From: a virus
Strand: one strand, 5' to 3'
DNA: 18,996 nt
Virus genome (UHGV): UHGV-0130646
Shown: positions 5,168-10,574 of the stretch, in pieces
Layout: the number at the start of each line of letters is the position of its first letter
How positions within the stretch are numbered: the first letter of the stretch is position 1
Position numbers and translations under genes: made by a program
The notes under the pieces: generated by a model
The model's database searches: none
Told to the model about the DNA's origin: nothing
Seen by the model: the letters and a program-made list of their open reading frames with translations, nothing else

Positions 5168-5623
5168 TTACAGATAATTGCGGTAACTGTTATCCGGGGT
5201 GATTTCCGGGTCAGGCTCCGTGCGGGGAATTTCCCGCCATTCCCGCGCCACCGGTGCTGCCCGGCTGACCGGAACAGGGTCCTGCGGGTAAATATCCAGA
5301 TATTTCTCACGCCATTTCTGTAATTCCGGGTCTCCGGCCATTTCTTTCAGTACCGCATGCCGGTTTACGGGGCTGCGTTTGAACAGGTCAGGACGGTCAC
5401 AGGTAAATTCCCGCAGAAAACGCCCCAGCGGGATGTCTGTGGTGCGCCCGTCAGCGAGGATACGCACAAGGATACTGAATTTACGGCGGTACGGGTTCCA
5501 GACAATGTCCGGGCAGCGGTACGGCATTTCCCACGGAATACCGTCTTCCAGAATGCCGACCACGGCCACATCGGGAAAACCGGCAGAACGGTAAATCTCA
5601 CCGGGCTGGGGAAAATCAAACAT
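5168..5623 (-). CDS. P4 orf151-like hypothetical protein
   Basis: 151-aa ORF in the left operon; its start overlaps the stop of the upstream 95-aa ORF by 8 nt. Position and length match P4 orf151. Confidence 0.65.
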   Translation of the reverse strand: MFDFPQPGEIYRSAGFPDVAVVGILEDGIPWEMPYRCPDIVWNPYRRKFSILVRILADGRTTDIPLGRFLREFTCDRPDLFKRSPVNRHAVLKEMAGDPELQKWREKYLDIYPQDPVPVSRAAPVAREWREIPRTEPDPEITPDNSYRNYL

Positions 5624-5903
5624 GCGTCCTGTCTCCCCGGTCTTTCTGCTGGGCGAGAAAATCGCGGCACAGGCCTTTGGCTTTCAGCTCATTCAGCACA
5701 AAATCAATATCTTCATTCAGGTAACTGAAAATATGCGGAATGTAGAGCTGATGCAGGCCGGAGAGTTCACGGTGAATCAAATCCCCCCCAACAAACCGGG
5801 ATACGGCGCTGGCGCGGTTGAGCTTATGGTAAGCCTCAATGCTGAGGTGTTCACGGGCGTCATGACGCGCTGAGACGGTCTGAGGGGCTTTTTTATTACG
5901 CAC
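5616..5903 (-). CDS. Small left-operon protein, possibly an epsilon-like antirepressor
   Basis: 95-aa ORF translationally coupled to orf151. Assignment to epsilon is positional only; identity is uncertain. Confidence 0.45.
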
Positions 5904-6495
5904 GGGACACCTCCATCACCGGCAGACGGGCAGCAAGGGAGAGCACATAGTCACGGACAAGGGAACGGCGGGCGCTGCGTTCATCACCGGCGACGGTGCG
6001 AAGCATACAGATACGGGGATGACGGTCTGCGCGACGGACAGCCGCAAACACAAAGACAAATTCAGGGTGTGAGGGGGTAAGGGTCGTAGCCATAAGGCAG
6101 CCTCCTTCGAGTAGCAAATAACTGCTATCGCCGGAGTTTCCACGCTCAATGGCGATAGCCCAGACGGGGGTGGAAATACCGGCCTCGAAGAATACCGGCC
6201 AGCCCGGAGGCTGCCCCGCCTGAGCTACCATTGACTCTGCGGCATAATGAGCGGACGCGGGCAGGATGCACGGAATGCCATCTGCACGACTGACCACACA
6301 CCACACCATAATCTGGCGCTCTGTGGCGTTGATTGCGACACAAAAAAAGACGCATGGCGCGTCATATGTCGCCTTCGAGTTACACGGGTTTCCACGCCCG
6401 GCTGCCGATTTTGCGGCAGCGGAAAAACTATATCCGCAAATGCCGGAAAAAGGCAAGCCAGAAAAAGGGACTTTTTGCAGAGCGGGCATCATCAT
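5896..6495 (-). CDS. orf199-like reading frame spanning the immunity region (kil-like N-terminus?); coding status uncertain
   Basis: Three in-frame ATGs (minus-strand ATGATGATG, plus 6487-6495) overlap the vis stop and give a 199-aa frame. In P4 this interval holds kil and the CI RNA immunity determinant, so the long ORF may not be fully translated. Confidence 0.3.
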
Positions 6496-6758
6496 GCGTC
6501 GTACCCCCGTTTGCGTCCGGCAATGCGCCCGGCCATCCATGCGGTGACTTCAGAGTGCAGCCAGGCCACATTTTTACCGCCAAGACTCACCTGCGGCGGA
6601 AATTCCCCCTTACGGATGAGTTCATAGATGGTCGAGCGTGACAGGCCGCACAGGTGCATCACTTCCGGCAGACGTAAAAAACGCTCCTGCGTGATGTCCG
6701 GCAGCGGCATCAGTGGCGTCACAGGGGCGGGAGACGGGGAAGAAAAAACAGCTTGCAT
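6492..6758 (-). CDS. vis: Vis / AlpA-family helix-turn-helix regulator (excisionase-like)
   Basis: 88-aa ORF with an AlpA-type HTH ([44 protein letters not shown]). GAGGT lies 5 nt upstream of the ATG. Confidence 0.8.
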
Positions 6759-6860
6759 CGGGCTACCTCGTTAATGTCCATACAGCACCGGATAAGTCCG
6801 TCCGGCTTCGGGTAGCGCTTTATTTTGTGAATATTTTCAGCAGACGCAACAGGGGGGATT

Positions 6861-6878
6861 TGTTCCGGCAGTCTTACA
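6861..6878 (-). promoter_or_regulatory. TGT-N12-ACA activator (Delta/Ogr-type) site upstream of vis; PLL-like late promoter
   Basis: TGTtccggcagtcttACA, about 100 bp upstream of the vis start codon (6758), the distance expected for a -55-centred activator site on a late promoter with a short leader. Confidence 0.5.
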
Positions 6879-6903
6879 ATGCTTGTGTATTTTTTGTTCA
6901 TCT

Positions 6904-7220: not shown

Positions 7221-7276
7221 TGTGTCAGGGCTGGCACATCTGCAATGCGTCGTGTTGTTGTCCGGTGTACGTCACA
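7221..7276 (+). promoter_or_regulatory. Psid-like late promoter with two TGT-N12-ACA activator sites
   Basis: TGTgtcagggctggcACA (7221-7238) and TGTccggtgtacgtcACA (7259-7276), centres 38 bp apart, upstream of the sid start at 7311. Confidence 0.6.
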
Positions 7277-7310
7277 ATTTTCTTAACCTGAAGTGACGAG
7301 GAGCCGGAAA

Positions 7311-8045
7311 ATGTCTGACAACACCATCCCTGAATATCTGCAACCCGCACTGGCACAACTGGAAAAGGCCAGAGCCGCTCATCTTGAGAACGCCCGCCTG
7401 ATGGATGAGACCGTCACGGCCATTGAACGGGCAGAGCAGGAAAAAAATGCGCTGACGCAGGCCGACGGAAACGACGCTGACGACTGGCGCACGGCCTTTC
7501 GTGCAGCCGGTGGTGTCCTGAGCGACGAGCTGAAACAGCGCCACATTGAGCGCGTGGCACGCCGGGAGCTGGTACAGGAATATGACAATCTGGCCGTGGT
7601 GCTGAATTTTGAACGCGAACGCCTGAAAGGGGCGTGTGACAGCACGGCCACCGCCTACCGGAAGGCACATCATCACCTTCTGAGTCTGTATGCAGAGCAT
7701 GAGCTGGAACACGCCCTGAATGAAACCTGTGAGGCGCTTGTCCGGGCAATGCATCTGAGCATTCTGGTACAGGAAAATCCGCTCGCCAACACCACCGGCC
7801 ATCAGGGCTACGTCGCACCGGAAAAGGCTGTCATGCAGCAGGTGAAATCATCGCTGGAACAGAAAATTAAACAGATGCAAATCAGTCTCACCGGCGAGCC
7901 GGTTCTCCGGCTGACCGGACTGTCAGCGGCAACACTCCCGCACATGGATTATGAGGTGGCAGGCACACCGGCACAGCGCAAGGTGTGGCAGGACAAAATA
8001 GACCAGCAGGGTGCAGAGCTTAAGGCCAGAGGACTGCTGTCATGA
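7311..8045 (+). CDS. sid: Capsid size determination protein Sid (external scaffold)
   Basis: 244 aa from the ATG at 7311 (GAGGAG 6 nt upstream); the ORF track's GTG at 7293 is probably not the start. Coiled-coil-rich translation; stop overlaps the delta start. Length matches P4 Sid. Confidence 0.88.
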   Translation: MSDNTIPEYLQPALAQLEKARAAHLENARLMDETVTAIERAEQEKNALTQADGNDADDWRTAFRAAGGVLSDELKQRHIERVARRELVQEYDNLAVVLNFERERLKGACDSTATAYRKAHHHLLSLYAEHELEHALNETCEALVRAMHLSILVQENPLANTTGHQGYVAPEKAVMQQVKSSLEQKIKQMQISLTGEPVLRLTGLSAATLPHMDYEVAGTPAQRKVWQDKIDQQGAELKARGLLS

Positions 8046-8542
8046 TTTACTGCCCGTCGTGTGGACATGTTGCTCACACCCGTCGCGCACATTTCATGGA
8101 CGATGGCACCAAGATAATGATTGCACAGTGCCGGAATATTTATTGCTCTGCGACATTTGAAGCGAGTGAAAGCTTTTTCTCTGACTGTAAAGATTCAGGA
8201 ATGGAATACATTTCAGGCAAACAGAGATACCGCGATTCACTGACTTCTGCCTCCGGCAGTATGAAACGCCCGAAAAGAATGCTTGTTACCGGATATTGTT
8301 GTCGGAGATGTAAAGGCCTTGCACTGTCAAGAACATCGCGGCGTCTGTCTCAGGAAGTCACCGAACGTTTTTATGTGTGCACGGATCCGGGCTGTGGTCT
8401 GGTGTTTAAAACGCTTCAGACCATCAACCGCTTCATTGTCCGCCCGGTCACACCGGACGAACTGGCAGAACACCTGCATGAAAAACAGGAACTGCCGCCA
8501 GTACGGTTAAAAACACAATCATATTCGCTGCGTCTGGAATGA
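8042..8542 (+). CDS. delta: Late-gene transcriptional activator Delta (tandem Ogr-type zinc finger)
   Basis: 166 aa with two Ogr-like Cys4 halves (CPSCG...C..YC and CCRRC...CTDPGC). Length matches P4 Delta. Confidence 0.88.
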   Translation: MIYCPSCGHVAHTRRAHFMDDGTKIMIAQCRNIYCSATFEASESFFSDCKDSGMEYISGKQRYRDSLTSASGSMKRPKRMLVTGYCCRRCKGLALSRTSRRLSQEVTERFYVCTDPGCGLVFKTLQTINRFIVRPVTPDELAEHLHEKQELPPVRLKTQSYSLRLE

Positions 8543-8615
8543 GGGCTGCCGGTTAACACCGGCCGTCGCCGCACACCGTATTTTTATTCTTCAGCATGAT
8601 GAGAAAGAGATAACG

Positions 8616-9188
8616 ATGGAAAGCACAGCCTTACAGCAGGCCTTTGACACCTGTCAGAATAACAAAGCAGCATGGCTGCAACACAAAAATGAGCTGGCAG
8701 CGGCCGAACAGGAATACCTGCGGCTTCTGTCAGGAGAAGGCAGAAACGTCAGTCGCCTGGACGAATTACGCAATATTATCGAAGTCAGAAAATGGCAGGT
8801 GAATCAGGCCGCCAGTCGTTATATTCGTTCGCATGAAGCCGTTCAGCACATCAGCATCCGCGACCGGCTGAATGATTTTATGCAGCAGCACGGCACAGCA
8901 CTGGCGGCGGCACTGGCACCGGAGCTGATGGGCTACAGTGAGCTGACGGCCATTGCCCGAAACTGTGCCATACAGCGTGCCACAGATGCCCTGCGTGAAG
9001 CCCTTCTGTCCTGGCTTGCGAAGGGGGAAAAAATTAATTATTCCGCACAGGATAGCGACATTTTAACGACCATCGGATTCAGGCCTGACGCGGCTTCGGT
9101 GGATGACAGCCGTGAAAAATTCACCCCTGCGCAGAACATGATTTTTTCGCGTAAAAGTGCGCAACTGGCATCACATCAGTCTGTGTAA
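8616..9188 (+). CDS. psu: Polarity suppression / capsid decoration protein Psu
   Basis: 190 aa; N-terminus MESTALQQAFDTCQNNKAAWLQ matches my recollection of P4 Psu. Last gene before cos. Confidence 0.88.
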   Translation: MESTALQQAFDTCQNNKAAWLQHKNELAAAEQEYLRLLSGEGRNVSRLDELRNIIEVRKWQVNQAASRYIRSHEAVQHISIRDRLNDFMQQHGTALAAALAPELMGYSELTAIARNCAIQRATDALREALLSWLAKGEKINYSAQDSDILTTIGFRPDAASVDDSREKFTPAQNMIFSRKSAQLASHQSV

Positions 9189-9230: not shown

Positions 9231-9265
9231 CATCGATAAGGTGCATGGCTTTGCATGCGTTTTCC
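9231..9265 (+). terminator. Rho-independent terminator downstream of psu
   Basis: GCCATGCA (9235-9242), 9-nt loop, TGCATGGC (9252-9259), followed by TTTGCATGCGTTTT. Confidence 0.55.
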
Positions 9266-9352
9266 TGCCTCATTTTCTGCAGACCGCGCCATTCCCGGCG
9301 CGGCCTGAGCGTGTCAGTGCAACTGCATTGAAACCGCCCCGCAAAGCGGGCG

Positions 9353-9371
9353 GGCGAGGCGGGGAAAGCAC
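9353..9371. other. cos site: 19-nt P2/P4 cohesive-end sequence
   Basis: GGCGAGGCGGGGAAAGCAC matches the P2/P4 cohesive end as I recall it. It is uninterrupted, so this is a cos junction and not a mature genome end. Confidence 0.8.
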
Positions 9372-9502
9372 TGCGCGCTGGCGGTGGTGCTGATTTTATT
9401 TTTTAGCGTCTCAGCGCGTCGTGATGGCGTTTAGATTGTGCGCCGGGGCGTTGGTGTGTCTGCGGGCTGTTTTGTGCGGTGGTGAGCGTGTGAGGGCGTG
9501 AT

Positions 9503-9524
9503 GACGGGGTGTAAAAAAGCCGCC
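9503..9524 (-). terminator. Rho-independent terminator downstream of Q (minus strand)
   Basis: GCCGCC / GGCGGC stem (9509-9524) followed on the minus strand by T6 (plus-strand A-run 9503-9508). Confidence 0.5.
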
Positions 9525-9539
9525 CGCAGGCGGCGATGT

Positions 9540-10574
9540 TCAGCCGTTGTCAGTGTCCAGTGAGTAGTTTTTAAAGCGGATGACCTCCTGACCGAGCCAG
9601 CCGTTTATTTCCCGAATCCTGTCCTGTAACGGGATAAGCTCATTGCGGACAAAGACCTTTGCCACTTTCTCAATATCGCCCAGCGACCCGACGTTCTCCG
9701 GCTTGCCGCCCATCAACTGAAAGGGGATGCGGTGCGCGTCCAGCAGGTCTGCGGCACTGGCTTTTTTGATATTAAAAAAATCGTCCTTCGTCGCCACTTC
9801 ACTGAGCGGGATAATTTTGATGCCGTCTGGCTTTCCCTGTGGTGCATAGAGAAACAGATTATTAAAGTTATTGCGTCCTTTCGACCTGGCCATGTTTTCG
9901 CGAAGTGAGTCAATGTAATCGCGATCCTGCAATGCGTCAGTGATATACATGATATATCCGGCATGTGCGCCGTTTTCGTAATACTTGCGGCGGAACAGCG
10001 TGGCCGACTCATTCAGCCAGGCGGAGTTAAGGGCGCTGAGATATTCCGGCAGGCCGTACAGCTCCTGATTAATATCAGGCTCCAGCAGGTGAAACACGGA
10101 GCCGGGCGCGAAGGCTGTCGGCTCGTTGAAGGACGGCACCCACCAGTAAACATCCTCTTCCACGCCACGACGGGTATATTTTGCCGGTGAGGTTTCCAGT
10201 CTGATGATCTTACCGGTAGTGCTGTAACGCTTTTCCAGAAACGCATTACCGAACACCAGAAAATCCAGCACAAAGCGGCTGAAATCCTGCTGGGAAAGCC
10301 ACGGGTGCGGGATAAACGTTGAGGCCAGAATATTACGTTTGACGTAAATCGGTGAGCTGTGATGCACGGCAGCACGCAGGCTTTTTGCCAGACCGGTAAA
10401 GCTGATTGGTGGCTCATACCATCTGCCGTTACTGATGCACTCGACATAATCCAGAATGTCACGGCGGTCGAGTACCGGCACCGGCTCACCAAAGGTGAAT
10501 GCCGCCATTTTCGGGGCGCTGGCGGTCATTTTTTTTGCCGCAGGTTGCGGTGTTTTCCCTTTTTTCTTGCTCAT
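9540..10574 (-). CDS. Q: Portal protein (P2 gpQ type)
   Basis: 344 aa, same length as P2 Q, with a lysine-rich N-terminus. Start overlaps the P stop in a TGATG arrangement. Confidence 0.9.
   Translation of the reverse strand: MSKKKGKTPQPAAKKMTASAPKMAAFTFGEPVPVLDRRDILDYVECISNGRWYEPPISFTGLAKSLRAAVHHSSPIYVKRNILASTFIPHPWLSQQDFSRFVLDFLVFGNAFLEKRYSTTGKIIRLETSPAKYTRRGVEEDVYWWVPSFNEPTAFAPGSVFHLLEPDINQELYGLPEYLSALNSAWLNESATLFRRKYYENGAHAGYIMYITDALQDRDYIDSLRENMARSKGRNNFNNLFLYAPQGKPDGIKIIPLSEVATKDDFFNIKKASAADLLDAHRIPFQLMGGKPENVGSLGDIEKVAKVFVRNELIPLQDRIREINGWLGQEVIRFKNYSLDTDNG

Follow-up and report, generated by a model that had tools for sequence, protein, structure and literature searches.

The immunity interval and its features

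We analysed an 18,996-nt window of viral DNA (UHGV-0130646), in which the minus strand between positions 5896 and 6495 carries a 199-codon open reading frame, eta, with a set of RNA elements inside it and a second gene, kil, nested in frame at its 3' end (Table 1). The eta frame runs from an ATG at 6495 to a stop at 5896-5898. It follows vis directly, and the kil stop overlaps the GTG start of epsilon (5903..5901). The nucleotide alignment of window positions 5700-6900 with positions 7972-9172 of phage P4 (X51522) showed 96.5% identity over 1201 nt; window coordinates were obtained from P4 coordinates by subtracting 2272, and seqA, seqB and seqC were located by the same alignment. Gene order and reading-frame lengths are those of P4 (88, 199/65, 95, 151, 106 and 777 aa), and family profiles (Pfam/NCBIfam) assigned vis to AlpA and epsilon to the "Derepression" family. 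Promoter, terminator hairpin, CI fold and the ATGATGATG overlap between vis and eta are also as in P4, and the kil product has a single amino-acid difference. The integrase and the left 2 kb of the present element are not P4-like.

Against Rfam, the minus strand gave full-length matches above the gathering score to three RNA families: C4, isrK and c4-a1b1 (RF03163; 6381-6433, 51.1 bits, gathering score 46.7). Work on P4 knows these elements as CI RNA and as the leader with seqA (PMC3632133, PMC4825925). A first-pass annotation of this DNA, made from the letters and their reading frames, had taken the interval by its position for the kil-cI region of P4, and both the alignment and the three Rfam scores bear this out. 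Judged from its sequence, the interval is the immunity region of a P4-like satellite.

Table 1. Positions of genes, RNA elements and signals in the immunity region (window coordinates)
Feature	Position	Strand	Evidence
vis (P4 orf88), AlpA-family helix-turn-helix regulator/excisionase	6492..6758	-	Pfam Phage_AlpA 7.3e-21; alignment to P4 ORF88
eta (P4 "orf199"; older label "cI/ash protein", 137 aa)	5896..6495	-	ORF; Pfam Phage_ASH
ATGATGATG, three in-frame eta starts (199, 198 or 197 codons)	6487..6495	-	sequence
Promoter PLE, TTGCCT - 18-nt spacer - TATAGT	6427..6456	-	consensus scan; -10 at 6432..6427
PLE leader RNA (isrK-like) with seqA and t1	6343..6420	-	Rfam isrK (RF01394) 74.2 bits, gathering score 50
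seqA box-1 target GUGGAAA, in the 8-nt loop CGUGGAAA of a 4-bp hairpin	6395..6389	-	complementarity and covariation with seqB
seqA box-2 target CUCGAAG	6379..6373	-	complementarity and covariation with seqB
Intrinsic terminator t1 (predicted), GACGCG-CCA-UGCGUC + U7	6363..6342 (stem 6363..6349)	-	terminator scan, fold
cI gene, CI antisense RNA (Rfam C4)	6148..6235	-	76.7 bits, E 9e-14, full length, gathering score 45
seqB box 2 CUUCGAG, loop of CI hairpin 2	6190..6184	-	complementarity
seqB box 1 UUUCCAC, single-stranded joint of CI	6176..6170	-	complementarity
9-bp hairpin displaying seqC box 1	6124..6159	-	inverted repeat, fold, covariation
seqC	6094..6147	-	P4 alignment; seqB-seqC pairing; inverted repeat; duplex energies
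seqC box-1 target GUGGAAA	6143..6137	-	P4 alignment, seqB complementarity
seqC box-2 target CUCGAAG	6111..6105	-	abuts and overlaps kil Shine-Dalgarno GGAGG (6105..6101)
kil, 65 codons, in frame at eta 3' end, Icd-like cell-division inhibitor (predicted)	5896..6093	-	NCBIfam phage_ICD_like
Position of P4 Rho-dependent terminator timm (X51522 8365-8209)	5937..6093	-	P4 coordinates plus offset; function by homology

The -10 element of PLE is identical to that annotated in P4 record X02534, and the transcript start was predicted near 6420, the position at which the isrK model begins. From about 6420 the leader comprises one hairpin, the hairpin that carries the box-1 target, the box-2 target and finally t1, followed by a variable spacer of 107 nt before CI. 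PLE and t1, here predicted from sequence, are identical or nearly so in P4. Folded alone, the leader was no more stable than its shuffles (z -1.05).

Downstream of CI and seqC, kil starts with an ATG at 6093, and its product matched the NCBIfam model NF033153 with 76.1 bits (cutoff 25; 1.6e-21). By analogy with P4, kil would be the first gene translated from PLE transcripts. The RNA that corresponds to timm, whose P4 coordinates are published (PMC3177188), is rich in C and poor in G, with a C/G ratio of 1.61 compared with 0.97 in the eta-specific part.

The CI antisense RNA

CI folds into a cloverleaf-like structure made up of a 17-bp stem and two hairpins (MFE -48 kcal/mol, z -4.6). In an alignment of 108 sequences this pairing was kept in 99.8% of cells, with 7 compensatory pairs. 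The RNA ends given in Table 1 follow the family model and are the probable ends of CI in the present element. Hairpin 2 accounts for a duplicated TACCGGCC that had been noted before at 6187-6194 and 6203-6210: the repeat is real and lies 10 nt lower, at 6177-6184 and 6193-6200 (as the 10-mer AATACCGGCC, 6175-6184/6191-6200). Its copies are the two arms of the hairpin (GCCGG/CCGGU), and they were invariant and 100% paired in the 108 sequences. Hairpin 1 (6206-6215) is perfectly complementary over 10 nt to the kil Shine-Dalgarno region (6096-6105). We dropped this pairing as a candidate; it was 87.8% paired among relatives and showed no covariation beyond controls.

Co-varying boxes and predicted immunity specificity

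Most substitutions that separate the window from P4 lie in three short stretches, seqA, seqB and seqC, and these match one another (pairwise alignment). Both seqA and seqC read GUGGAAA ... CUCGAAGG in the window and GUGAGAA ... UUCACAGG in P4. The seqB patch reads CUUCGAG (box 2) ... UUUCCAC (box 1) in the window, where P4 has CCUGUGAA and UUCUCAC, respectively. Predicted energies of the cognate duplexes ranged from -32 to -41 kcal/mol and those of the crosses between window and P4 from -22 to -25 kcal/mol, cross-pairing being 10-16 kcal/mol weaker. Since the changes in seqA, seqB and seqC are concerted and compensatory, immunity specificity should differ from that of P4, and we predict that the element is heteroimmune to P4.

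Related loci were collected by searching IMG/VR with two degenerate CI DNA patterns, which we used in place of an epsilon-protein search of genome contigs that had given only 6 loci. Among 60 close relatives, box 1 had two alleles and box 2 at least eight, and the three sites agreed with one another in nearly all. The pair of box alleles found in the window occurred in 4 of these 60 and is not unique. Across about 145 distinct loci we counted 11 box-1 and 35 box-2 alleles in 56 combinations. Watson-Crick runs between the boxes and the upstream and downstream regions averaged 6.9-8.1 nt for cognate and 4.2-4.8 nt for non-cognate partners. In the 108-sequence alignment, seqB and seqC were 95.3% paired versus 67.7% in shuffles, all 14 of the 14 pairs were compensatory and none of 500 shuffles reached the score.

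The first-pass annotation had proposed a small RNA and not a protein as the immunity factor; the three Rfam families and the RNA-RNA covariation agree with this, and the RNA is a structured one. The principle is that of heteroimmune P4-like elements such as the retronphage phiR73, in which specificity is set by co-varying boxes within an otherwise conserved region; for phiR73, Sabbattini et al. (1996) reportedly traced the differing immunity of P4-like elements to seqA, seqB and seqC sequences that co-vary. Reading the seqB boxes and their targets would predict which P4-like satellites exclude one another.

A conserved hairpin with the downstream target in its loop

A 9-bp stem with an 18-nt loop had been placed at 6134-6142 and 6161-6169 by the first-pass annotation. 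The inverted repeat exists, and its arms lie 10 nt lower, at 6124-6132 (GCTATCGCC) and 6151-6159 (GGCGATAGC), with the 18-nt spacer. In the RNA, GCUAUCGCC (6159..6151), which is also the outer 3' arm of CI, pairs with GGCGAUAGC (6132..6124), and an inner 3-bp GAG/CUC stem closes an 8-nt loop, identical to that in seqA, which is the seqC box-1 target. The fold had an energy of -18.6 kcal/mol (z -2.9). Mononucleotide shuffling of the interval produced a perfect 9-bp inverted repeat with a loop of 3-30 nt in 84 of 2000 cases, and by itself such a repeat is only mildly unusual. The comparative evidence is stronger: among 108 distinct relatives the pairing was kept in 96% of cells (12-54% in slid controls), with compensatory changes at 5 of the 9 pairs and a score reached by 0 of 500 shuffles. 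This covariation indicates a selected structure. The same two-tier hairpin, built from unrelated arm sequences, lies downstream of a C4-like RNA in PY54, phiKO2, a Ralstonia phage and a skin P2-like phage.

We interpret the hairpin as the way in which the downstream target is displayed. As its 5' arm is the 3' arm of CI, the hairpin and the outer CI stem are mutually exclusive, and the hairpin spans the likely 3' processing site of CI. It may in addition compete with the folding of CI, or belong to the atypical terminator t4. The possibility that it is an element in its own right, either the factor-independent atypical terminator t4 of P4 or a switch through which competition with the CI stem controls CI maturation, deserves to be taken seriously even though we think it unlikely. 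The covariation, the shared arm and the conservation in distant C4-type systems all speak for such an element, and Briani (2000) reportedly placed t4 between cI and timm. Against it, the U-rich tract that follows the stem (AGUUAUUUG) is not conserved in relatives, for which reason we rejected a classical intrinsic terminator; the far more stable CI stem wins in the full-length fold; and the downstream alternative structure is not above shuffles. That alternative, a 3:4 hairpin of the MFE fold sequestering the kil Shine-Dalgarno, was rejected at 79% paired, no better than shuffles.

More tentatively still, we suggest that the hairpin is a conserved conformational switch shared by every phage immunity system of the C4 type, namely those of P4-like satellites, N15-like phages, Ralstonia phages and the P2-like skin phage. 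If true, the switch could set whether the antisense RNA matures or whether the downstream target is shown, or termination takes place there. We found no annotation or description of such a switch in the literature that we consulted. Together, a two-box code of at least 11 x 35 alleles and a hairpin switch, if both hold, would make the cross-immunity groups of satellites readable from sequence. What we add is modest: covariation support for a hairpin that shares an arm with CI, and its wide distribution.

The eta frame is kept open

The first eta ATG and the TGA of the 88-codon vis (6494..6492) form an ATGA overlap, and this stop sits inside the triple ATG ATGATGATG (6495..6487), as the first-pass annotation had noted. 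The eta of P4 is given as either 197 or 199 codons long. Upstream of its ATG the frame stays open to 6540 and would give 214 aa. The ATGA overlap (GCATGATGAT) recurs in 87 of 149 distinct related loci, and the overlap is probably a translational-coupling junction, by analogy with P4, where translation of eta is coupled to the alpA homologue (PMC10111431, summarising Forti 1999). The suggestion that vis is coupled into the next reading frame therefore agrees with both the published account and the recurrence of the overlap.

Within its 199 codons the frame spans PLE, seqA, t1, CI and seqC, and ends as kil. Three observations argue for selection on its continuity. In 126 of 146 loci the eta frame ran without a stop over at least 330 nt upstream of the kil ATG; each of the other two frames did so in far fewer, 8 and 2 loci. 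The distance from the eta ATG to the kil ATG took nine values between 354 and 402 nt and was divisible by 3 in 85 of 87 loci. Finally, relative to P4 the window carries two indels between CI and kil, one of +1 and one of -1, separated by 28 nt, which recode ten eta residues and restore the frame directly before kil.

Continuity of the frame is not accompanied by conservation of its amino acids. Counts of variable sites at codon positions 1/2/3 were 8/11/13 in the eta N-terminus, 11/10/9 in the leader, 24/27/26 in the spacer, 11/13/12 in CI and 10/12/12 in seqC. A third-position excess of substitutions appeared in kil only (17/13/50). Without such an excess, the first 134 codons of eta are unlike a conventional protein, and the simplest reading is that in this part the open frame is preserved and not the amino-acid sequence. 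The kil part is, by its sequence, a genuine Icd-like protein under amino-acid constraint. On the same simplest reading eta must be translatable from end to end, which fits the anti-termination by translation reported for P4; there, kil is nested in eta and translation of eta prevents termination (PMC10111431).

A functional Eta protein of the Bro/Ash network, whose N-terminal sequence matters and in whose real gene the RNA elements are embedded, seems improbable to us. The Pfam family Phage_ASH (PF10554) matched eta residues 22-146 (1.8e-23, 83.5 bits), which could mean a protein domain and not mere read-through; the reading frame is conserved, and eta has been placed among Bro-network proteins (PMC10111431). 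The matched region has no third-position excess, the three codon positions are equally variable in every eta-specific segment while kil differs sharply, and the indel pair has replaced ten residues between CI and kil wholesale relative to P4. The Pfam family itself may merely mirror conservation at the nucleotide (RNA) level.

Still harder to sustain is the opposite view, in which the 199-codon frame exists mostly by chance and vis-coupled ribosomes, which soon stop or fall off, translate no more than its N-terminus. The first-pass annotation had leaned this way. It was right that the frame is no ordinary gene, as the missing third-position excess over the N-terminal 134 codons confirms, and most of the frame is indeed occupied by RNA elements. 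Translation of the N-terminus alone is not supported by the comparison: despite high sequence variability the frame is open in the great majority of loci, its nine length classes preserve the reading frame, the indels relative to P4 compensate each other before kil, and the constrained part is the C-terminal kil. Read-through translation of eta that prevents termination has moreover been reported (PMC10111431). The same annotation had set a stable small RNA with premature 3' ends against detection of the full 199-aa product. This is a false dichotomy; small RNA, premature termination and full-length translation, the last from the upstream late promoter, coexist in P4.

A conventional protein repressor with incidental RNA structures, as implied by the P4 GenBank and RefSeq annotation ("cI gene product, 137 aa"; "transcriptional repressor"), can draw on the long open frame and the Phage_ASH match and is scarcely credible, given three Rfam families above their gathering scores, strong RNA-RNA covariation at all three sites, a supposed repressor part that lacks any codon-position signature, and later literature in which the immunity factor is an RNA (PMC4825925, PMC3632133, PMC10111431).

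We regard the frame held open without amino-acid constraint, as a signature of eta, as a further modest addition. It offers a clear natural case in which a frame stays open so that translation itself can take place (anti-termination), and its amino acids drift.

Proposed mechanism

All the sequence-level hallmarks of the P4 system appear to be present, and the best explanation of the interval, to which we give a probability of about 0.9, is a P4-like satellite immunity region that works as in P4. The system is already known, and its accepted mechanism is unchanged by our analysis. The CI/seqA/seqC mechanism of P4 has been described (PMC4825925, PMC3632133). Our own data cover homology, membership of RNA families, structures, complementarity with its covariation, conservation of the frame and codon-position patterns; where the account below deals with processing and termination, with dependence on Rho, with coupling or with the immunity phenotype, it follows the P4 and P1 literature. 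Systems of the P4 type are characterised by a stable RNA of about 70-80 nt, processed with RNase P and PNPase, by PLE transcripts that end prematurely in lysogens and by superinfection immunity of defined specificity.

Constitutive transcription from PLE would proceed leftwards through seqA, t1, cI, seqC and kil and then epsilon, orf151, orf106 and alpha. The primary transcript would be processed to a stable, cloverleaf-like CI RNA of about 80 nt (6235..6148), whose single-stranded boxes (CUUCGAG, UUUCCAC) would pair with seqA upstream and seqC downstream on new PLE transcripts. Pairing at seqA would lead to termination at the intrinsic terminator t1. Pairing at seqC would cover the kil ribosome-binding site, leaving the C-rich kil RNA untranslated, and transcription would stop short of the replication genes (t4, Rho-dependent timm). 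Once the late promoter, which lies upstream of vis, is active, ribosomes that end vis would re-initiate at ATGATGATG and translate eta through the leader, CI and seqC into kil, masking targets and terminators. Such masking would make transcription from the late promoter insensitive to immunity.

Comparison with known systems

The P1/P7 immI operon encodes a c4 antisense RNA with boxes a' and b', in the order a1b1, c4, a2b2, icd, ant. In the comparison with P1-type systems we take kil to be the homologue of Icd and epsilon to be the analogue of the anti-repressor. The immI operon and its equivalents in N15, PY54 and phiKO2 share with the present element the same RNA families (Rfam C4 and c4-a1b1) and the same order: upstream targets, a processed RNA, downstream targets over the ribosome-binding site of an Icd-like reading frame, and an anti-repressor-type gene. 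Systems of the N15/PY54/phiKO2 type also have the two-tier hairpin showing the box-1 target. Unlike P1/P7, elements of the P4 type have the nested, vis-coupled eta frame and a second, late promoter, and the controlled downstream genes are the replication genes of the satellite. Outside CI, sequence identity between the present element and P1/N15-type systems is low.

The PLE leader also resembles IsrK of Salmonella Gifsy-1, matching the isrK model from end to end. Each is a short 5' transcript with an intrinsic terminator at its end and a C4-like RNA downstream. IsrK is described as a trans-acting RNA that opens its own long isoform (orf45-anrP) for translation, and the homologous segment of P4 as the seqA target of CI (PMC4825925, PMC3632133).

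Distribution, annotation and genome context

Of 5426 complete E. coli genomes, about 1040 carry a copy of the region and 21 match a 371-bp region with at least 99% identity. In E. coli GMF065 the region is 100% identical; PGAP names eta an "Icd-like protein" there, and no RNA is annotated. Public records in general label the interval as a protein, either as a "transcriptional repressor" (P4 RefSeq) or as a 199-aa "Icd-like protein" (PGAP), with no RNA gene marked. The value of the present case lies mainly in annotation and as a worked example, being a clean natural variant in which the RNA and both of its targets have changed together.

No complete E. coli genome contained both halves of the window contiguously, the junction of P4, cos and P2 was not found in IMG/VR, and between int and alpha we detected no tRNA or tmRNA fragment that would indicate an attachment site. 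At 9353-9371 of the window lies an intact cos site (GGCGAGGCGGGGAAAGCAC), with the psu end of the P4-like genome on one side and the Q end of a P2-like genome on the other. Inside the satellite part, int, about 700 bp and alpha are contiguous, which is the excised or virion topology and not the prophage order seen in genomes.

Immunity targets among relatives and annotation of the immunity region

CI, the antisense immunity RNA of the P4-like satellite, carries seqB, which is complementary to seqA upstream and seqC downstream. Among IMG/VR loci, the relatives that we collected with degenerate CI DNA patterns, a minority have a seqB that is matched by their own seqC and not by their own seqA. 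Of the 145 loci, 19 had less than 6 nt of continuous upstream complementarity to box 2, and examples of the mismatch include a P4-type seqA found together with CUUCGAG-type seqB and seqC. These seqA-mismatched loci look as if different immunity types had recombined, or as if the elements depended on seqC alone.

Hairpin 1 of CI (GGCAGCCUCC, 6206-6215) is also perfectly complementary over 10 nt to the Shine-Dalgarno region of kil (GGAGGCUGCC, 6096-6105). Across relatives, 87.8% of this complementarity was paired, and a test for covariation in the same pairing found none above controls. One IMG/VR contig (L074) contains two CI-type genes on the same strand, 2.6 kb apart (7262-7288 and 9892-9918 of that contig). 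Separately, at PLE, the constitutive promoter of the immunity region, a direct repeat (GCCGGAAAAAGG / GCCAGAAAAAGG, 6442-6468) lies across the -35 element.

Annotation of the immunity interval in public records is outdated or incomplete: the P4 records X51522 and NC_001609 label it "cI gene product 137 aa" or "transcriptional repressor," and PGAP-annotated genomes (E. coli GMF065) call it an "Icd-like protein" of 199 aa and mark no ncRNA there.

Overlapping reading frames in the left operon

Downstream of vis, successive genes overlap at their ends. Together with the ATGA shared by vis and eta, the 199-codon frame whose last 65 codons are kil, the two overlaps beyond it suggest that ribosomes are handed over along the whole left operon.

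Positions of gene overlaps and of the cos site in the window
Feature	Position	Detail
kil/eta stop overlapping epsilon GTG	5896-5903	GTGCGTAA
epsilon / orf151 overlap	5616-5623	8 nt
Intact P2/P4 cos site	9353-9371	19 nt; at the satellite / P2-like junction

The cos junction and the integrase end

At 9250-9560, the intact cos site connects the P4-like satellite, at its psu end, directly with the left end of a P2-like phage (Q, P, O, N ...). The two halves of the window were contiguous in none of the complete E. coli genomes searched, and a search of IMG/VR did not find the junction. It could represent a cos-joined hetero-concatemer, a recombinant in the cos region, or an assembly join made via the shared cos repeat.

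At the other end (1-2364), the integrase (464-1663), a further ~700 bp and then alpha are all contiguous. This contiguity of int and alpha is the excised, or attP, topology; the prophage order in genomes, beside ssrA, is int-cargo-psu...alpha. The integrase and the left 2 kb of the window are unrelated to P4. A search for tRNA and tmRNA fragments between int and alpha found none; the sole match was to IsrM, far below threshold. In two related sequences (L179 and L180), a P2/186-like prophage encoding a GPA replication protein, a CI repressor and an integrase directly adjoins the integrase end of the satellite, so that in some genomes helper and satellite lie in tandem at one locus.
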